Shown here one piece after another: positions 1 through 7,967 of a DNA stretch of 7,967 nucleotides. The stretch is from a virus (taxonomy: Duplodnaviria > Heunggongvirae > Uroviricota > Caudoviricetes). Numbering within the stretch: the first letter of the stretch is position 1; every line of letters begins with the position of its first letter. The position numbers and the translations under genes were made by a program. Location of the stretch: the IMG/VR virus record IMGVR_UViG_2695420699_000019; one strand, 5' to 3'. Under the pieces are notes generated by a model, which had not been told where the DNA came from, did not search any database, and worked only from the letters and a program-made list of their open reading frames with translations.

Positions 1-483
1 ATGACGAAGAAAAAAGCACATAAACCTGGTTCAGCGACCATCGCGCTTAACAAGCGCGCCCGTCACGAATACTTTATCGAAGAAGAGTTCGAAGCGGGAC
101 TTGCCCTGCAAGGCTGGGAGGTTAAATCCCTGCGCGCAGGAAAAGCCAATATCAGCGACAGCTACGTCCTTCTGCGTGACGGAGAGGCATTTCTGTTTGG
201 CGCTAACATCACGCCAATGGCCGTGGCCTCCACGCATGTGGTGTGCGATCCTACCCGTACCCGCAAGTTACTTCTCAACCAGCGCGAACTGGACTCATTG
301 TACGGTCGCGTCAATCGAGAAGGCTATACCGTAGTGGCGCTCTCCCTGTACTGGAAAAATGCCTGGTGCAAAGTGAAAATCGGCGTCGCCAAAGGTAAAA
401 AACAGCACGATAAACGTTCAGATATCAAAGAACGCGAATGGCAGGTGGATAAAGCACGTATCATGAAAAACGCCCACCGTTAA
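1..483 (+). CDS. smpB: SsrA-binding protein SmpB (160 aa)
   Basis: Complete ORF, ATG at 1 and TAA at 481-483. The translation ([25 protein letters not shown]...[10 protein letters not shown]) matches E. coli SmpB as I recall it, and it sits directly upstream of ssrA as in Enterobacteriaceae. The start may be the true start or the window may simply begin at the ATG. Confidence 0.97.
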
Positions 484-697: not shown

Positions 698-1060
698 GGG
701 GCTGATTCTGGATTCGACGGGATTTGCGAAACCCAAGGTGCATGCCGAGGGGCGGTTGGCCTCGTAAAAAGCCGCAAAAAATAGTCGCAAACGACGAAAA
801 CTACGCTTTAGCAGCTTAATAACCTGCTTAGAGCCCTCTCTCCCTAGCCTCCGCTCTTAGGACGGGGATCAAGAGAGGTCAAACCCAAAAGAGATCGCGT
901 GGAAGCCCTGCCTGGGGTTGAAGCGTTAAAACTTAATCAGGCTAGTTTGTTAGTGGCGTGTCCGTCCGCAGCTGGCAAGCGAATGTAAAGACTGACTAAG
1001 CATGTAGTACCGAGGATGTAGGAATTTCGGACGCGGGTTCAACTCCCGCCAGCTCCACCA
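698..1060 (+). ncRNA. ssrA: tmRNA (transfer-messenger RNA, 10Sa RNA), 363 nt
   Basis: Starts GGGGCTGATTCTGGATTCGACGGG and ends GGGTTCAACTCCCGCCAGCTCCACCA (tRNA-Ala-like acceptor/T-arm with encoded CCA). Contains the internal tag reading frame. Length and sequence match E. coli ssrA as I recall it. Confidence 0.97.
787..819 (+). other. tmRNA mRNA-like domain: tag-peptide reading frame ANDENYALAA followed by TAA (a second in-frame TAA at 820-822)
   Basis: GCA AAC GAC GAA AAC TAC GCT TTA GCA GCT TAA read directly from the sequence; this is the canonical E. coli proteolysis tag (the first Ala comes from the charged tmRNA). Confidence 0.9.
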
Positions 1061-1269: not shown

Positions 1270-2301
1270 ATGGAAGCTACTGTGGATTCGATTGATTTTC
1301 TGATCCGTAGTGAAGATGATTTTCTAAACTTTCTGGAAGAAATGAAAGCCCGAGAGGGGCTTGATTCTAAAGAGTTTATTTTCCCTAACGTAAAGTTTGC
1401 AGGCTGGCCATCCTTAGACATAAATGTAAAAGGAGAGCGGTATCATTCATCAATTACATCAGCAATGTTGTTTGGTATGTCAATGCTCAACGAGGAGATA
1501 CAGCGGGCGTTTGCAACCATACGATACGGATCGCAGAATCTTCAACGCTTGACTAATGAAGACAAGCAACGACTTGATATAAATTTTAAAATTAGCGAAG
1601 GTTCTAGTGATGCGGAAGGCACCACTGACAAGATCATCAACGCAGTAACTGATTTTTTGCGAGATACTATGTCTGGACTGAACGGCTGGCAGAAAATGCT
1701 TGTTATAATCACAATGGTTGGCGCGGCCAGCACATGTGGTTATCACTACATTTCAGAAAATGCCGTAACAGAAAGACATGCAACTGATCGGCAGGTTGAA
1801 ATTGCAAAAACCACATCCGATGGCATAAACAAAGCCATAGAAGCAACATTAGATTATAAAATCTATGGGAAATCAGCGATTAGCGATAAAGTTACTAGTC
1901 ACGGACAAGCAGGTAAAAGTGCTTTAGTGAAGCAATTAGCTGCTGATCCTACTGTCGAAACCGTGACTTTAGGAAATGAGAAACTAACACGACAAGACCT
2001 AAATACCTACAACAGCCGACAATCTGTAGATAGAGAACGTAAAGAACGAACTGATATATTTTCCATCAAAGGTGTAACCAGAACAGGGCCAACAAATCAG
2101 GATATTAATATTAACGTTGTTAGGGTCTCTAATGACGAATGCTTCACAATCAAAGCTTCAGCTGATGTTATCACCCAAGATGAGTTGACAGCTATTGTTG
2201 ACGCTTTGTCAAACAACTCTCATATTAAAATCAGTTACTTAGAGGTAATTGAAAAGGGTGCTGTTTCTATAGGTCAGTTCAACACTATTGTTTCAGAATA
2301 A
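1270..2301 (+). CDS. Hypothetical protein, 343 aa, no family recognised
   Basis: Long ORF with a good RBS (AAGGA at 1258-1262, 7 nt before the ATG). Strongly acidic N-terminus (MEATVDSIDFLIRSEDDFLNFLEEM). One hydrophobic stretch (WQKMLVIITMVGAASTCGY, about residues 140-158) that could be a single transmembrane helix or buried core. No Walker A or other catalytic motif recognised. AT-rich relative to smpB. Confidence 0.8.
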   Translation: MEATVDSIDFLIRSEDDFLNFLEEMKAREGLDSKEFIFPNVKFAGWPSLDINVKGERYHSSITSAMLFGMSMLNEEIQRAFATIRYGSQNLQRLTNEDKQRLDINFKISEGSSDAEGTTDKIINAVTDFLRDTMSGLNGWQKMLVIITMVGAASTCGYHYISENAVTERHATDRQVEIAKTTSDGINKAIEATLDYKIYGKSAISDKVTSHGQAGKSALVKQLAADPTVETVTLGNEKLTRQDLNTYNSRQSVDRERKERTDIFSIKGVTRTGPTNQDININVVRVSNDECFTIKASADVITQDELTAIVDALSNNSHIKISYLEVIEKGAVSIGQFNTIVSE

Positions 2302-2352: not shown

Positions 2353-2697
2353 ATGTCCTTAAAGTATGCACATGAAAAATTTCATACTGCAGTACTTACT
2401 CTTGCGGGCCATGGAAGTATTCAAGAACGCTTGATTAATTCGTATGTTTTTAGCCTTGGGCATCTTAAAACAGCCGATGATATTCCAAATGCCTTACAAA
2501 GCAGGTTCGATGAATTATGTAAGGAACTGACTAAGTTTGATGCCACTGGCGATGAGGGGCGAGTTCAAGCAACAGTATCAAAACTTAACGATTTCGAGAT
2601 CAATAAACTGATCGAAGATATTGTCAGTCTTAACGATGATATTTGCATGAAATTGGCTCTGACGGATGAGACTTACCAAGACATACACCAAAGTTAA
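2353..2697 (+). CDS. Hypothetical small acidic protein, 114 aa, no family recognised
   Basis: ORF 51 bp downstream of the 343-aa ORF on the same strand, so probably an operon. RBS GGAG at 2342-2345, 7 nt before the ATG. Net acidic by my residue count (about 19 D/E versus about 10 K/R); looks helical. Followed by a terminator hairpin. Confidence 0.7.
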   Translation: MSLKYAHEKFHTAVLTLAGHGSIQERLINSYVFSLGHLKTADDIPNALQSRFDELCKELTKFDATGDEGRVQATVSKLNDFEINKLIEDIVSLNDDICMKLALTDETYQDIHQS

Positions 2698-2724: not shown

Positions 2725-2756
2725 AACCAGCCAGTTTTTGGCTGGTTTATTGTCTT
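2725..2756. terminator. Probable bidirectional intrinsic terminator between convergent genes
   Basis: Perfect 8-bp stem AACCAGCC (2725-2732) / GGCTGGTT (2740-2747) with loop AGTTTTT, then a T-rich tract on the plus strand (TATTGTCTT); on the minus strand a TTTTT run follows a few nt after the stem. Lies between the stop of the 114-aa gene (2697) and the stop of the minus-strand 70-aa gene (2782). Confidence 0.45.
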
Positions 2757-2781: not shown

Positions 2782-2994
2782 CTATTTATGATGTAATCCG
2801 GACATCAGTTCATGGACAAGATTATCTCTTTCATTGTGTTGCAACCGTAAATGCATAGCAAAAAGGTGAGCACTATCCTCATTCCTCTTCAAGCCATGCT
2901 GTTCAAGATACCCGAAAAAACGGCTTCTCTTATCCGCTATTTCCTGAGTCTGACGTGCAACATTTACCAAATTTTCTAGCGTTTTTCTTGGCAT
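2782..2994 (-). CDS. Hypothetical small protein, 70 aa, no family recognised
   Basis: Minus-strand ORF with a near-consensus RBS (AGGAGG, 7 nt before the ATG; plus-strand complement CCTCCT at about 3002-3007). MPRKTLENLVNVARQTQEIADKRSRFFGYLEQHGLKRNEDSAHLF..., no Cys, basic N-terminus. Lies immediately downstream of the invertase on the same strand. Confidence 0.65.
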   Translation of the reverse strand: MPRKTLENLVNVARQTQEIADKRSRFFGYLEQHGLKRNEDSAHLFAMHLRLQHNERDNLVHELMSGLHHK

Positions 2995-3035
2995 ACTATT
3001 TCCTCCTGAAATTGTTGTAATTCACTAGGATATTC

Positions 3036-3062
3036 ATTTTAATTTGTATCATTTAGTACCAA
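3036..3062 (-). promoter_or_regulatory. Possible sigma70 promoter for the 70-aa gene (TTGGTA - 15 bp - TAAAAT on the minus strand)
   Basis: Minus-strand reading: -35 TTGGTA (complement of 3057-3062), 15-bp spacer, -10 TAAAAT (complement of 3036-3041), about 40 nt upstream of the start codon. Pattern match only; the spacer is short. Confidence 0.2.
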
Positions 3063-3192
3063 AACCGCTATCAATTAACAAAGCCATCGTTGTGGTTTAC
3101 CTTGCAGCCGTTTTTTGTCATTGACTCTATGTGAAAATAATGAATCATCATGAGATTGGCTCACACGTTCTTGAATTCGACGAGCTGTGTCT

Positions 3193-3747
3193 TTATTTAT
3201 CTCCTGCCGGAAACCTCTGATACAAAGTCGATACGCCAACATCATAGATAATCGCAACTTTCTGGCGCGGAACTCCTGATGCAATTAATCGTCCGGCTTG
3301 TGCCCATTGTTCTGGTGTAAGTTTGGGACGACGTCCACCAATTCGTCCCTGTGCGCGAGCAGCTTCCAGTCCAGCTTTTGTTCGTTCAACAATCAGTTCT
3401 CGTTCCATTTCAGCCAGGGCCCCCATCACATGAAAGAAAAAGCGCCCCATTGGGGTACTGGTATCAATTGAATCCGTCAGACTACGAAAGTTGATGCCTC
3501 GTTCGCGCAACTCCTCCACCAGCACGACAAGATGCCGCATACTGCGCCCCAGTCGGTCCAGTTTCCAGACCACCAGCGTATCGCCTGCCGATAATGTCCT
3601 GAGCAGTTTTTTCAGTCCCGGCCTTTCGGACTTTGTACCGCTTATCTTGTCTTCAAAAATCAGCTCACATCCTGCACAGTTCAGCGCATTACGTTGTAGA
3701 TCTGTGTTCTGGTCATTTGTTGATACGCGTACATAGCCAATAAGCAT
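3193..3747 (-). CDS. Serine-recombinase DNA invertase, Gin/Pin/Cin/Hin (Din) family, 184 aa
   Basis: Translation from the Met at 3747: MLIGYVRVSTNDQNTDLQRNAL...DTLVVWKLDRLGRSMRHL...GRFFFHVMGALAEMERELIVERT...GRIGGRRPKLT...YDVGVSTLYQRF. Contains the catalytic-serine motif YVRVSTNDQ and a C-terminal HTH region, and is close to e14 Pin/Mu Gin as I recall them. RBS GGGGGA 6 nt before this ATG. The ORF track's longer start (3783, MASFLLLSGGST...) is probably not used. Confidence 0.93.
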   Translation of the reverse strand: MLIGYVRVSTNDQNTDLQRNALNCAGCELIFEDKISGTKSERPGLKKLLRTLSAGDTLVVWKLDRLGRSMRHLVVLVEELRERGINFRSLTDSIDTSTPMGRFFFHVMGALAEMERELIVERTKAGLEAARAQGRIGGRRPKLTPEQWAQAGRLIASGVPRQKVAIIYDVGVSTLYQRFPAGDK

Positions 3748-3801
3748 GGTAGATCCCCCTGACAAAAGCAGGAATGATGCCATTTGCTCGTTATTTCTGC
3801 A

Positions 3802-3827
3802 TTTTCATAAACGTTGGTTTGGGAGAA
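3802..3827 (+). other. Din-type 26-bp recombination crossover site (site a): TTTTCATAAACG-TT-GGTTTGGGAGAA
   Basis: Two imperfectly symmetric 12-bp half-sites around a central TT; resembles hix/gix sites (hixL as I recall: TTCTTGAAAACC-AA-GGTTTTTGATAA). Lies 55 bp upstream of the invertase start, as in Mu gin/gixR. The right half-site encodes the conserved GLGE junction of the tail-fibre cassettes. Confidence 0.6.
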
Positions 3828-4040
3828 GCGGCAAAACGGAATGTGGGCAACGGGGAAAACCAAATCCCTGATATGTCTTTCTGGACGGTTACTGGTGGCA
3901 ATGGAAATTTTGTGATTCGTCAACCTGACGGGCTAATCACTCAGATGGTTACTGTAAGTATAAGTGGTCCAGTGGCGATGAATGGAATGACTGATAATGC
4001 TTATGCCATTACAGGTTCTAATAAGTCTTATATTGCCACA
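3828..4040 (+). pseudogene. Fragment of a tail-fibre variable cassette (first 71 codons only), identical to the start of the cassette at 5998-6210
   Basis: Region 3814-4040 is an exact copy of 5984-6210 (encodes [71 protein letters not shown]). It stops abruptly at 4040, where sequence from inside the invertase gene begins. Confidence 0.6.
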
Positions 4041-4367
4041 ACCCATCACATGAAAGAAAAAGCGCCCCATTGGGGTACTGGTATCAATTGAATCCGTCAG
4101 ACTACGAAAGTTGATGCCTCGTTCGCGCAACTCCTCCACCAGCACGACAAGATGCCGCATACTGCGCCCCAGTCGGTCCAGTTTCCAGACCACCAGCGTA
4201 TCGCCTGCCGATAATGTCCTGAGCAGTTTTTTCAGTCCCGGCCTTTCGGACTTTGTACCGCTTATCTTGTCTTCAAAAATCAGCTCGCATCCTGCACAGT
4301 TCAGCGCATTACGTTGTAGATCTGTGTTCTGGTCATTTGTTGACACACGTACATAGCCAATAAGCAT
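4041..4367 (-). pseudogene. Truncated second copy of the DNA invertase (N-terminal 109 codons only)
   Basis: 4042-4458 repeats 3422-3838 with 4 substitutions. It encodes MLIGYVRVSTNDQ...GRFFFHVMG, then runs into unrelated antisense tail-fibre sequence (CGNIRLIRT...). Lacks the C-terminal part of the invertase including the DNA-binding HTH. Confidence 0.85.
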
Positions 4368-4421
4368 GGTAGATCTCCCTGACAAAAGCAGGAATGATGC
4401 CATTTGCTCGTTATTTCTGCA

Positions 4422-4447
4422 TTTTCATAAACGTTGGTTTGGGAGAA
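4422..4447 (+). other. Din-type crossover site (site b), same sequence and orientation as site a
   Basis: Part of the duplicated unit, 620 bp offset from site a: TTTTCATAAACG-TT-GGTTTGGGAGAA. Confidence 0.6.
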
Positions 4448-4807
4448 GCGGCAAAACGGGATGTAGGGACAGGGGAAAATCAGATACCGGACATGGCCTC
4501 TTTTGCCAGTGGTGATGGATGGATGAAATTACCCAACGGTAAAATTCTGCAATATGGTCGAGGCGAGGCTATGCCGAAATTATCGACGCAAACAATGAGG
4601 ATTACATTTCCTATCCCTTTCCCTAAAAAAGCGGACTGCGCCATTCTTACCCATTCTGGTGATGGCGGTGCGCCTTTAGGCGCTGGGCGAGGGTTCGTGA
4701 TGACTGCAGAAGGCCCTACGTTAACCGGCTTTAATTCTGCTTACAGAACGTCATCAACCAGTGACACGGTATCTATGCATTACAGTTGGTGGGCTGTTGG
4801 TGAGTAA
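4448..4807 (+). CDS. Tail-fibre C-terminal variable cassette B (silent; no constant 5' part attached)
   Basis: In frame with the GLGE junction of site b: ...[54 protein letters not shown]...HYSWWAVGE, TAA at 4805-4807. Same N-terminal junction motif as the other cassettes but a different C-terminal (receptor-binding) sequence. The upstream ATG at 4394 has poor RBS context and lies antisense to the invertase copy. Confidence 0.65.
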   Translation, partial: AAKRDVGTGENQIPDMASFASGDGWMKLPNGKILQYGRGEAMPKLSTQTMRITFPIPFPKKADCAILTHSGDGGAPLGAGRGFVMTAEGPTLTGFNSAYRTSSTSDTVSMHYSWWAVGE

Positions 4808-4827: not shown

Positions 4828-5688
<861 letters not shown>

Positions 5689-5694
5689 TAATCC

Positions 5695-6438
5695 ATGCAT
5701 CGTATAGACACGAAAACCGCGCAGAAGGATAAGTTCGGCGCGGGTAAGAACGGTTTTACCCGTGGTAACCCCCAGACCGGCACACCTGCCACCGATCTGG
5801 ATGATGACTACTTTGACATGTTGCAGGAAGAACTCTGCAGCGTGGTGGAGGCATCCGGTGCCAGCCTGGAGAAGGGGCGGCATGACCAGCTGCTTACCGC
5901 GCTTCGTGCGCTGCTGTTAAGCCGCAAGAATCCGTTTGGCGATATCAAATCTGATGGCACGGTGAAAACGGCTCTCGAAAACCTTGGTTTGGGAGAAGCG
6001 GCAAAACGGAATGTGGGCAACGGGGAAAACCAAATCCCTGATATGTCTTTCTGGACGGTTACTGGTGGCAATGGAAATTTTGTGATTCGTCAACCTGACG
6101 GGCTAATCACTCAGATGGTTACTGTAAGTATAAGTGGTCCAGTGGCGATGAATGGAATGACTGATAATGCTTATGCCATTACAGGTTCTAATAAGTCTTA
6201 TATTGCCACAGCCACATTGCCCTTTGTATTTCCTAATAAGGTACTGGGCGTTATCCCTCTGGTATCAACAACAGCCTATGGTGGTGTATCCAGTAATATT
6301 ACAGGTTCATACGCGACGGCGGTTTGTTCTTTTGCCGCTGTCCGGGGGAATAATACGATTGTATTCAAAGTCGACAAACCACTGAATGCAGCCTTTCCTT
6401 CAGATACCAGCGTCTCAGCGTTAATCATTGGACGGTAA
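5695..6438 (+). CDS. Short side-tail-fibre protein (247 aa): constant N-terminal part fused through crossover site c to variable cassette C (the expressed cassette in this orientation)
   Basis: ATG at 5695 with RBS GGAG 6 nt upstream. N-terminal 97 aa ([21 protein letters not shown]...[10 protein letters not shown]), then the variable part ([19 protein letters not shown]...SALIIGR). The junction motif L-G-L-G-E resembles the constant/variable junction of lambda Stf and Mu S; size and context resemble e14 StfP (from memory). Confidence 0.8.
5972..5997 (+). other. Din-type crossover site (site c): CTCTCGAAAACC-TT-GGTTTGGGAGAA, inside the tail-fibre gene at the constant/variable junction
   Basis: Right half-site and centre identical to sites a and b; the left half-site differs and resembles the hixL left half (TTCTTGAAAACC, from memory). 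It sits where constant and variable tail-fibre parts are joined, as gixL does in Mu. Confidence 0.65.
5984..6210 (+). repeat. Exact 227-bp direct repeat, partner at 3814-4040
   Basis: Manual comparison shows identical sequence across the right half of the crossover site and the first 71 codons of cassette C. Confidence 0.85.
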
Positions 6439-6440
6439 TA

Positions 6441-6884
6441 ATGAACTCAGTATTCTTTTCACCCGGAAGTAAAAGTTTTTATCTACAAGAATTGTTTCCA
6501 GAATATGAGGATGCGGGAACGCTTCCAGATGATGTTATTGAAATTACCCGAGAAACATATGAGCAATTTCTTGGGCTGCATCCAGAAGGGAAAGAAATTG
6601 GCGCTGACAGTTCAGGACGGCCAATATGGATTAATTCCCCACCGCCTTCAAAAGAGGATGAGGTGTTGATGGCTGAAATGAAAAAAATATCTTTGGTTTC
6701 AGAAGCCAATACCTACATCAATACCCATCAGTGGCCTGGCAAAGCTGCTATTGGTCGTCTGAAAGGTAACGAGCTGGAGCAATATAATTTATGGCTGGAT
6801 TATCTGGACGCACTGGAACTGGTTGATCCCTCCAGTGCTCCAGATATTGAATGGCCTACGCCTCCGGCAGTTCAGGCCAGATGA
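6441..6884 (+). CDS. Tail-fibre assembly protein (Tfa), cassette C partner, 147 aa
   Basis: Starts 2 nt after the tail-fibre stop (TAATAATG). Ends ...[31 protein letters not shown], typical of lambda Tfa / Mu U chaperones. Confidence 0.8.
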   Translation: MNSVFFSPGSKSFYLQELFPEYEDAGTLPDDVIEITRETYEQFLGLHPEGKEIGADSSGRPIWINSPPPSKEDEVLMAEMKKISLVSEANTYINTHQWPGKAAIGRLKGNELEQYNLWLDYLDALELVDPSSAPDIEWPTPPAVQAR

Positions 6885-7458
6885 CATTCGGCGCGGTGCT
6901 GGTATCTGTTGCCGTCACCGCGTCAATGTAATCCAGCACAGCGTTAAGCTGGGTTGTTTCTGCCTGCGTCAGTTTCCGTCCGGCCTGTAATTTCAGCTGA
7001 ATCAGACTGATGGAAGCCATTGCAGCATCAATCAGTGACTGGCGCTGTGCTTCTGCCGCGTCTACTGCGGCGCTATGCTGTGCCTCAGTATCGGTTACCC
7101 ATTTCTCACCATCCCATTTATCGTATGGAGATAAAGGGGCGATAGTGGTTGTATTTTCAGGGTAATCACCCGGAGCTTTGATTTCTTTTGATTCTCCTGT
7201 TTCTGTGCTAAAGACGATTTCACCACGATGGTCTGGCACATATTCCCATGAGTTAAAATCTGCAGAACGGCAAATTGCATACCCAGTTTTGTATGAGCCA
7301 GGAGCATCTAAACAGGAACATGCCGGAATGCCGACACCCACAGCAAGATATTCAGTTGATGTGAAAATATATTCCCGTGTTTCACCATCATAGTTATAAA
7401 CCGTAATATTTCCTGCCTGGGTGGCGATAAATTCGTTATTTAATACAGCGTAATCCAT
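6856..7458 (-). CDS. Tail-fibre assembly protein (Tfa), cassette D partner, 200 aa, inverted orientation
   Basis: MDYAVLNNEFIATQAGNITVYNYDGETREYIF...WDGEKWVTDTEAQ...DTSTAPNVIWPELPEA, typical Tfa architecture. Its 3' end overlaps the 3' end of the convergent tfa at 6441-6884 by 29 bp. Same length as e14 TfaE as I recall. Confidence 0.8.
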   Translation of the reverse strand: MDYAVLNNEFIATQAGNITVYNYDGETREYIFTSTEYLAVGVGIPACSCLDAPGSYKTGYAICRSADFNSWEYVPDHRGEIVFSTETGESKEIKAPGDYPENTTTIAPLSPYDKWDGEKWVTDTEAQHSAAVDAAEAQRQSLIDAAMASISLIQLKLQAGRKLTQAETTQLNAVLDYIDAVTATDTSTAPNVIWPELPEA

Positions 7459-7967
7459 TATGCAGCCCTCACGATATACGCAAATGCCAGGTTCCGTGGT
7501 CTGGTTTCTTTAATTAAAGAGGAGGCATCAGGTGAACTCACTGATTCAGCACCATTTCTTCCACCAGTGGTATAAGTAAAAACTCTTTCACTGTTAGACC
7601 AGTAATCCACACCAACTGTTTTTGCTGATGAAAAAATGGTTTCATCAGATATAACCTGTTCTATTCCATACGGGATATTAGTAACTGACCCCACTTTTGT
7701 AGGTATTCCATGATTATGAGAAATTACTGCATGCTCTTGATTCGTTAATAAAGTACGACCGCTATCCACTCCACGCCCGTCATCCCAGCCACGAATAAAC
7801 TCACCACGTAAATCAGGCAATTTATTTGTCGGATAAGCCTTTGCCAGTTCCGGGTATTCTTCAGCAGAAAAAGCGGCACCGTTGCATTTCAGCCAGCCTG
7901 TTGGCGGAGTGGCGGAAGGCCACGGAACAGGCACGCCAACGGGTAATGCCGAACCTTCTCCCAAACC
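7458..7967 (-). CDS. Tail-fibre C-terminal variable cassette D (inverted, silent in this orientation); 5' end runs off the window
   Basis: Minus-strand translation (G)LGEGSALPVGVPVPWPSATPPTGWLKCNGAAFSAEEYPELAKAYPTNKLPDLRGEFIRGW...RPRNLAFAYIVRAA resembles the lambda Stf C-terminal region (from memory). Its stop overlaps the start of the downstream tfa (TAATG). It begins with the GLGE junction at the window edge; the M shown in the ORF track is a TTG Leu codon inside the junction. Confidence 0.8.
   Translation of the reverse strand, partial: GLGEGSALPVGVPVPWPSATPPTGWLKCNGAAFSAEEYPELAKAYPTNKLPDLRGEFIRGWDDGRGVDSGRTLLTNQEHAVISHNHGIPTKVGSVTNIPYGIEQVISDETIFSSAKTVGVDYWSNSERVFTYTTGGRNGAESVSSPDASSLIKETRPRNLAFAYIVRAA
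7956..7967 (-). other. Partial Din-type crossover site (site d, right half-site GGTTTGGGAGAA on the minus strand); the rest lies beyond the window
   Basis: Plus strand 7956-7967 is TTCTCCCAAACC, the reverse complement of the conserved half-site. It is inverted relative to sites a, b and c, so c and d form an inverted pair flanking about 2 kb (cassette C + tfa / tfa + cassette D). Confidence 0.5.

Follow-up and report, generated by a model that had tools for sequence, protein, structure and literature searches.

The short open reading frame that lies between a DNA invertase gene and a convergent two-gene operon in this stretch of 7,967 nucleotides from a virus of the Caudoviricetes (hereafter the window) raises two questions: is it a gene, and, if so, does it belong to either of its neighbours? 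An earlier note on this DNA, made from the letters alone, had argued that the ORF is translated and had offered three options for its product, namely a regulator of the operon, an antitoxin or immunity partner for it, or independent cargo. Its description of a 70-aa ORF without Cys, preceded by AGGAGG at a 7-nt spacing and convergent with the operon, was correct throughout (Table 1). The translation is MPRKTLENLVNVARQTQEIADKRSRFFGYLEQHGLKRNEDSAHLFAMHLRLQHNERDNLVHELMSGLHHK, with zero Cys, and the letters 5' of the start codon on the minus strand are AGGAGGAAATAGTATG. The product has a RefSeq entry, WP_001137529.1, under the name 'hypothetical protein'.

The AGGAGG-N4-10-ATG pattern occurs a single time in the window and at least once in 51 of 200 shuffled windows. 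The earlier argument from this ribosome-binding site stands in so far as the Shine-Dalgarno sequence is strong and is also present in the homologues, where a purine-rich version (AAGGAG, AGGAG, AGGAGG and similar) lies 5' of every copy read, but it does not go beyond chance; since about a quarter of the shuffles contain the pattern, it is supportive and not decisive. We assign coding status because of conservation, not because of the ribosome-binding site alone. The ORF is unbroken in 19 of 19 near-identical E. coli and viral loci read, and more than 1000 contigs record the identical protein. A lack of conservation or frameshifts in orthologous loci, which the earlier note had named as evidence against a gene, was not seen; the homologues align without gaps. 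The E. coli locus is nearly clonal (at least 99% identical), so within-species data are uninformative on the small gene. Among six family genes with pairwise nucleotide identities of 45-65%, pN was 0.26-0.45 against a pS of 0.70 to more than 1, with synonymous sites saturated, and substitutions were concentrated at third codon positions. Collectively, these comparisons indicate that the ORF is a genuine protein-coding gene under purifying selection.

Table 1 Features of the window and relic att sites in related loci (positions of the window, or of the locus named)
Feature	Position	Strand	Basis or remark
smpB	1-483		window start
ssrA tmRNA	698-1060	+	Rfam
ssrA 3' end, att core of the prophage	1025..1060	+	repeat at far prophage end; junction homology
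343-aa gene	1270-2301	+	phrog_6191; low-GC cargo between small gene and att
114-aa gene	2353-2697	+	low-GC cargo between small gene and att
9-bp perfect inverted repeat between convergent 70-aa and 114-aa genes	2725..2747	both	folding
70-aa CDS (small gene)	2782..2994, stop codon included	minus	ORF call, ATG start, homologues, pN<pS
AT-rich spacer, pinE stop to 70-aa ATG	2995..3192 (198 nt)	minus	GC 0.35-0.36
Shine-Dalgarno AGGAGG	3002..3007	minus	7-nt spacer to ATG of 70-aa ORF
pinE DNA invertase	3193-3747	minus	Resolvase + HTH_7, phrog_125 'DNA invertase'
Relic att site, L012	7815-7925
Relic att site, L021-25	7790-7925
Relic att site, L034/36	6880-7010
Relic att site, L020	2800-2895
Relic att site, L013	263-290
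Relic att site, L037	about 6870-6920

With the 70-aa protein as query, phmmer was run exhaustively against 1.84 billion cluster representatives and returned five further homologues of 67-76 aa and 40-58% identity, and a word-index search found near-identical proteins in E. coli and Salmonella only. A profile search extended the family to 17 clusters (E 1e-24 to 1e-35, or to 1e-39 over all searches; 37-58% identity), all named 'hypothetical' and all confined to Enterobacteriaceae: E. coli, Salmonella, Citrobacter, Pantoea, Scandinavium and Escherichia sp. The alignment is gapless across 65 residues and has eight invariant columns (A13, L30, A42, A46, R56, L59, V60 and L63); the 70-aa protein shares full-length similarity, length and these conserved columns with the other members. 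Searched with the family HMM, each locus contained exactly one member and none elsewhere. The Pfam, NCBIfam, PHROGs and PADLOC libraries gave zero matches for the query and all 16 members, a tblastn search of 50,697 phage genomes with three members gave no match, and a sequence profile search of the PDB returned nothing but a P450 segment matched by chance (E 0.04). When species-representative genomes were scanned with a sub-alignment, a Scandinavium MAG that was known already was the sole match. The family was observed solely in prophages, prophage remnants and metagenome contigs. Literature searches for the 70-aa protein by accession and by peptide found nothing, and the prophage sRNA paper PMC12803456 concerns a locus other than that of the small gene.

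Two observations made along with the searches concern single proteins. A Tyr29->Asp allele of the 70-aa protein (P0018, E. coli) is recorded on 330 contigs; every other family member has an aromatic residue (F or Y) there, and this common allele may be functionally impaired. The 1959-aa protein P0030, a hit of the search of representatives, had seemed to lead to RecA/RAD51-binding BRC repeats, and there are DinI, UmuD and SRAP genes nearby. This lead was rejected: P0030 is eukaryotic and BRCA2-like, its score sums weak repeat matches, and pairwise BLASTP against the 70-aa protein gave E 0.37.

The complete genome of E. coli EC1515 (NZ_CP021844) places the same DNA at one end of a prophage of ~39 kb. 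The order there is smpB-ssrA-343-114-70-pinE-tail fibres-Mu-like baseplate/tail, followed by HK97-like head-terminase-lysis-Q-replication-cro/cI-xis-int-AAA-ATPase/RloB and then, where the prophage ends, by 32 nt that repeat ssrA nt 331-362. This order and the ssrA repeat put the small gene inside the prophage, whose end at the ssrA core lies 1.7 kb 3' of it. Similarity to attP-like junctions in two other loci (L002 and L032) begins at window position 1025, and the window covers one end of a prophage that has integrated at ssrA. The small gene is on the late-gene strand, as the last co-directional gene after the tail-fibre/invertase module. GC content is 0.35-0.41 over the cargo block (0.39-0.40 in each of the three cargo genes), 0.50 in pin and 0.50-0.55 from the invertase on, with the shift exactly at the pin stop. 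In its accessory position and in a base composition unlike that of the phage backbone, the small gene resembles a moron.

Other cargo was noted at both ends of such prophages. In L002 (9933-12809) and L032, a 43-kb IMG/VR contig, an attP-like junction of the window's phage carries the 343-aa gene, a 38-nt ssrA core, 113-aa and 255-aa cargo (phrog_2594 and phrog_3307), int and xis in that order, which points to tandem prophages or to a circularly permuted assembly of an active phage. The int-proximal cargo of EC1515 (L026 9390-11341) is an AAA-ATPase and RloB pair that adjoins attR and probably serves in defence. An older P4-like island follows on the other side of attR; it has an integrase, AlpA and YfjI, then genes for an ATP-dependent nuclease, a helicase like UvrD and a TIR protein, so that multiple elements are stacked at ssrA.

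The invertible tail-fibre region of the window is rearranged, at 3422-4448 and in the repeats 3809-4043 and 5979-6213. A 300-nt piece from the 5' half of pin occurs twice, 620 nt apart (3422-3721 and 4042-4341, 100% identical), leaving a truncated second pin ORF at 3933-4403, and a 235-nt tail-fibre segment (3809-4043) is repeated 2170 nt away at 5979-6213. Three copies of a 67-nt unit with a putative crossover site, AAACGTTGGTTTGGGAGAAGCGG, lie at 3809, 4429 and 5979. The region could be a multi-segment, shufflon-like system, or the product of aberrant recombination or assembly. Among the tail-fibre genes there is also an IS3-family fragment (5227-5570; transposase orfA N-terminus, ORF 5263-5691), which holds a full-length match to the Hfq-binding sRNA isrC (RF01387, 150 bits) at 5295-5417; another locus (L006) has a complete IS at the same place.

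How the small gene is transcribed was addressed from its flanks. It had been described as directly downstream of the invertase; it is indeed the co-directional neighbour on the 3' side, but a 198-nt AT-rich spacer intervenes. On the gene's strand, neither a terminator nor a consensus sigma-70 promoter was detected in this spacer, and no such promoter was found 5' of the gene in the window or in three homologous loci. On the other side, the inverted repeat between the convergent genes gives a hairpin whichever strand is folded (-18.6 and -16.8 kcal/mol, z -3.3 and -2.4). The earlier proposal of a shared bidirectional terminator holds for the 9-bp hairpin itself, but a U-rich tail follows it directly on the + strand only, so that the hairpin is convincing as a terminator of the 114-aa operon but no more than plausible as one of the 70-aa gene. 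In Pantoea (L012), 140 nt 5' of the homologue, there is a terminator-like hairpin, and the same hairpin was found in L020, L021 and L034. Its own Shine-Dalgarno sequence and a terminator just 5' of several homologues suggest that the small gene is a separate transcription unit, probably of the 'moron' type and expressed in the lysogen. The promoter is presumed to lie within 2995-3192; as no consensus sigma-70 site was found, this promoter stays an assumption, and co-transcription with pin may occur in E. coli. Of the signals expected of a moron, a hairpin was seen 3' of the gene and a terminator 5' of it in homologues, and a consensus sigma-70 promoter was found in none of the four loci.

Near-consensus LexA boxes were seen in two related loci, TACTGTAAATGCATACAG in L012 (7710-7728) and TACTGTAAAAATATACAG in L034 (6794-6813). 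They precede a divergent cargo operon of DinI, SRAP (YedK-like) and UmuD-like genes that abuts the relic tRNA-Pro arm described below and appears to be an SOS-controlled cargo module at the prophage end. A LexA-controlled antirepressor was considered for the small gene and rejected: the good boxes belong to this divergent operon beyond the terminator, and none precedes the small gene.

What the family has in common is its position. In other genera, a functional att core (icd or tRNA-Leu) lies 150-420 nt 3' of the small-gene homologue, with strict adjacency in 7 of the 8 non-E. coli lineages examined. An icd 3' fragment made of the last 51 codons (Pfam Iso_dh positions 306-348 of 348) was found ~150-350 nt 3' of the gene in L013, L021-25 and L034-36; the lineages using this site are Citrobacter braakii (L021-25), Scandinavium (L013/14) and L034-36. 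For e14, attachment at icd is already known (PMC12803456). The core is instead a tRNA-Leu 3' fragment in Pantoea (L012) and Citrobacter portucalensis (L037); it lies ~150 nt 3' of the gene, with yecA further 3' on the host side. The same tRNA-Leu fragment directly adjoins yecA in E. coli, and we take the tRNA-Leu gene beside yecA to be leuZ of the K-12 map. In the window, the 343/114 cargo sits between the small gene and the ssrA core.

The arrangement in the phage could be read from two loci whose sequences are the same, small gene and icd segment included, up to position 7792. Past this point the genome L034 continues into host genes (attR form), and the 36-kb metagenome contig L036 has three CCCCAAAA repeats, a convergent int-xis pair and then early genes (attP form). 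The two forms imply that the small gene faces int across attP in the circular phage, a convergence seen in one unintegrated example (L036). A place beyond attP and distal to int is the position of lambda sib (PMC2951348).

A second set of att remnants was found on the other side of the gene (Table 1). In most homologues, the 3' fragment of an RNA gene lies 75-93 nt before the ATG on the opposite strand, either tRNA-Pro (47-55 nt, 89-100% identical) or ssrA (28 nt). The tRNA-Pro fragment, which comes from the gene beside yejM (proL in K-12 nomenclature, by E. coli annotation), has a terminator hairpin and three TTCCCC repeats in front of it. The same arrangement forms the phage arm beside the intact tRNA-Pro gene in an E. 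coli lysogen (L039), and this match identifies the upstream fragment as what is left of a second attP, or as a copy of one that can still be used. L034 has, in addition, a relic P arm of tRNA-Leu on the way from the small gene to the active icd site. Taken together, the loci suggest that the small gene stayed the nearest gene to the att site while integration modules were swapped around it. The hairpin region of the window was compared with the terminator of the tRNA-Pro P' arm, and the match (44 nt, about 77%) was too weak to use.

The state of the tRNA-Pro relic is an observation in its own right. The fragment, terminator and TTCCCC repeats are 89-100% identical to the host gene and to the L039 arm; around them both flanks are unalignable and the adjacent gene is down to 40% amino-acid identity. 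In L037 the same relic is decayed. This suggests a second att site that is still in use or was recently refreshed.

The 70-aa protein has a mass of 8.3 kDa, a pI of 9.4, no hydrophobic segment and a short basic arm at its N-terminus; having no signal peptide or membrane segment, it is presumably cytoplasmic. The family members have masses of about 8 kDa; seven of nine have a pI of 8-9.6, and two are acidic (5.6 and 6.2). AlphaFold models of two members that are 49% identical gave the same three helices (pLDDT 78 and 76), at about 4-33, 39-48 and 53-65, an all-alpha fold with an unusually long helix 1 of about 30 residues. The best-conserved stretch, A46-x-x-L-G-L-S-x-x-x-R56-x-N-L-V, covers helix 2, the turn and helix 3, a segment that in the models resembles a helix-turn-helix; at the 'turn' position, which is Gly in half the family, the protein of the window carries Arg. 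Foldseek found no significant neighbour in the PDB or among viral models (E >1), and none of the HTH families in Pfam and NCBIfam reached even E = 1. The insignificant structural neighbours are mostly DNA-binding helical domains, including XRE proteins and homeodomains, with the N-terminal domains of Cre, Xer and IntI heading both lists. Derivation of the small ORF from an integrase domain was tried and dropped, as hhalign against two neighbouring integrases gave probabilities of 0.1-0.2%.

Does the small gene belong to a neighbour? If it were part of the invertase system, for example a Pin accessory factor co-transcribed like com-mom after gin, its place would fit: it is co-directional, 198 nt 3' of pinE with no terminator detected between them, and in E. 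coli it is always beside pin or a pin fragment. However, of 5426 complete E. coli genomes, 1528 have pinE homology and just 45-46 the small gene; in the rest of the 1528, the shared homology ends at the pinE stop (around window ~3164-3191). No invertase lies near the homologues of other genera, the lack of Cys excludes a Com-type zinc finger, and GC falls from 0.50 to 0.35-0.40 exactly at the pin stop, which together leave a tie to Pin barely credible. We find it just as hard to believe that the gene is the regulator, antitoxin or immunity partner of the convergent operon, although the three genes always form one block in E. coli, with a common low GC and a hairpin. This pin-70-114-343 block is constant in E. 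coli while the rest of the prophage varies: it is still present beside a lambda-like tail and a truncated pin (L003), IS insertions (L006) and a rearrangement (L008). Yet it is at least 99% identical in all 46 complete E. coli genomes that carry it, so the co-occurrence is clonal and says little on linkage. Both pin and the 343/114 pair are absent beside the homologues in the five of five distant lineages that could be tabulated on both sides (Pantoea, two of Citrobacter, Escherichia sp. and the L034-36 lineage; the Scandinavium and metagenomic L020 contigs are cut off on one side of the gene), and the HMM search of all loci agrees. Conversely, a 46% identical homologue of the 343-aa protein in Escherichia phage phi458 (L033 6001-7047) lies immediately 3' of cI beside a different small gene, in a genome with no member of the small family, and none of the 70-, 114- and 343-aa proteins matches a PADLOC model. 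The partnership that the earlier note had considered is thus largely refuted, and the constant association with the invertase or the pair that it had suggested looking for is limited to the clonal E. coli block. As most pin genes lack the small gene and its homologues lack both neighbours, it is a partner of neither and travels independently of the Pin invertase and the 343/114 operon, which favours the independent cargo among the three options offered.

Two further explanations take the position beside att as the key. In one, the product is an att-linked accessory factor acting on site-specific recombination or int expression, by binding the P arm, by biasing integration versus excision, or by acting together with convergent transcription into int in the circular phage. 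Such a role would account for the gene staying closest to attP. Adjacency to att cores in 7 of 8 non-E. coli lineages despite differing att types and upstream cargo agrees with it, as do the convergence with int across attP in L036 and the relic tRNA-Pro P' arm and core 75-88 nt 5' of the gene, 96-100% identical to the host gene. In L013 and L020, the stop codon is within about 10-30 nt of repeated CAAAAC-type motifs, with putative IHF-like sites, assigned by eye, further along the P arm. There is also a precedent in KplE1, where the RDF gene torI and intS form a recombination module at the prophage junctions (PMC2951348). However, the same phages have a canonical excisionase beside int (phrog_2917, E 1e-41 to 1e-44; Exc in L036), and the small gene is kept with unrelated integrases (Arm-DNA-bind_1, Arm-DNA-bind_2) and differing att sites, unlike directionality factors, which co-vary with the integrase. 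In the window it does not adjoin the att core, as 1.7 kb of other cargo lies in between. A role as a recombination accessory is weakened by these facts and is, in our judgement, unlikely. As for a directionality factor in the strict sense, no excisionase, winged-helix or other family was matched (Pfam, PHROGs and NCBIfam gave none for the 16 members), the models are all-alpha, the canonical xis overlaps int, and the family occurs with icd, tRNA-Leu and ssrA sites. A broader version, in which the gene is an accessory component of the integration module that tunes integrase expression, site choice or directionality by the integrated or excised state, is rather improbable; since the gene faces int across attP only in the circular phage, its product or convergent transcription could have a state-dependent effect. 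Finally, the reading frame might be incidental to an RNA or DNA element near attP (a sib-like retroregulator or an int terminator), or the copies might be decaying relics. Lambda sib occupies the equivalent place, past attP on the side away from int (PMC2951348), the family occurs in prophages and remnants and never in isolated phages, and some copies are in obvious remnants (L015-19, L038). Against this stand a pN well below pS, the third-position excess, the absence of any indel in 65 codons, a conserved start and length, and a Shine-Dalgarno sequence before every copy; Rfam on the whole window matched the tmRNA and the IS-associated isrC only, with nothing at the small-gene locus. We consider this explanation very improbable.

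We are strongly confident that the small gene is a real, independently inherited, att-proximal accessory gene of prophages. The fuller explanation that we prefer, a free-standing accessory gene of temperate phages whose product is likely a binding regulator, has about an even chance of being right. The gene is carried in the low-GC cargo block with which the late (tail-fibre) arm ends on the att side, and the protein would be made in the lysogen from its own moron-type unit and bind a partner common to all these hosts or phages. Our first choice of partner would be DNA, contacted through helix 2-turn-helix 3 and the basic N-terminal arm, in which case the protein would act as a small transcriptional or architectural regulator. 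DNA binding is favoured because of the HTH-like segment, the basic arm and the mostly basic pI of the family, and we propose a small DNA-binding regulator tentatively, at somewhat less than an even chance. A conserved host protein would be the second choice of partner, and a modulator that binds such a host factor is almost as likely.

The neighbouring pair may have a function of its own. The 343-aa protein has one predicted membrane helix (residues ~141-160), its homologues in PhiR12 phages are annotated 'T2SS GspM containing', and the 114-aa protein is an orphan with no phage match. Lambda keeps rexAB immediately 3' of cI, and by analogy the slot of the 343-aa homologue in phi458 may be a rexAB-like position for exclusion genes expressed in the lysogen. 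We regard the two genes as a candidate module for prophage defence or exclusion that PADLOC does not contain.

What was a 'hypothetical protein' is now a validated small-protein family with a defined genomic niche, a modest result on its own, and two functional links that had looked attractive, one with the invertase and one with the neighbouring operon, have been removed. The comparisons across genera indicate a conserved gene that temperate phages of enteric bacteria carry beside the chromosomal att site. If this positional rule reflects function, the result matters more, since few kinds of att-acting small proteins are known, and such proteins control the entry of prophages into chromosomes and their exit. 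The loci are also a clear example of stacked att relics, useful for the question of how temperate phages change their integration specificity. Pfam, PHROGs and NCBIfam have no model of the family, so prophage annotation would gain from a profile based on the present alignment.

Among known systems, the three-helix HTH regulators (Cro/XRE-type and homeodomain-like) are similar in size, basic charge and basic N-terminal arm, and in the HTH-like segment 39-65 with its A-x-x-L-G-L-S...R-x-N-L-V pattern; XRE proteins and homeodomains are among the weak structural neighbours. The small protein differs from them in its long helix 1, in matching no HTH family at E = 1 and in structural scores that are insignificant. 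Mu Com, the zinc-finger translational activator encoded after gin, is likewise a small ORF after a Gin/Pin-family invertase at a phage end. Unlike Com, the small protein has no homology to it and lacks the four Cys zinc ligands, and the earlier verdict that it is not Com-like is borne out by the lack of any zinc-finger or other family match; no mom-like gene follows 3', where the hairpin and the convergent 114-aa gene lie, and most pin genes have no small gene beside them.

A third comparison is with torI, whose exact position we take to be one flanking the attachment site. TorI, the 66-aa RDF of KplE1/HK620-type modules (PMC2951348), is also a small basic protein with a gene in an att-flanking region. 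The small family has no sequence or family similarity to it, its predicted fold is all-alpha whereas TorI is a winged helix, the phages with the small gene already encode a canonical Xis, and the family is not bound to one integrase type. A further parallel is with the morons and other prophage cargo carried between tail-fibre genes and att, such as mcrA 3' of pinE in e14 and the lambda b region. Like these, the small gene comes straight after pinE where the late arm ends on the att side, is lower in GC than the backbone, is neither needed by nor linked to the structural or recombination genes beside it and is patchy among related prophages. Unlike a typical moron, which shifts position and is freely swapped, the family holds one att-side position across genera and att types, and no promoter was found for it. 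The small gene is a rare small-protein family in a familiar class, the att-proximal accessory genes of prophages, and the unusual part is its constant position beside stacked att relics.
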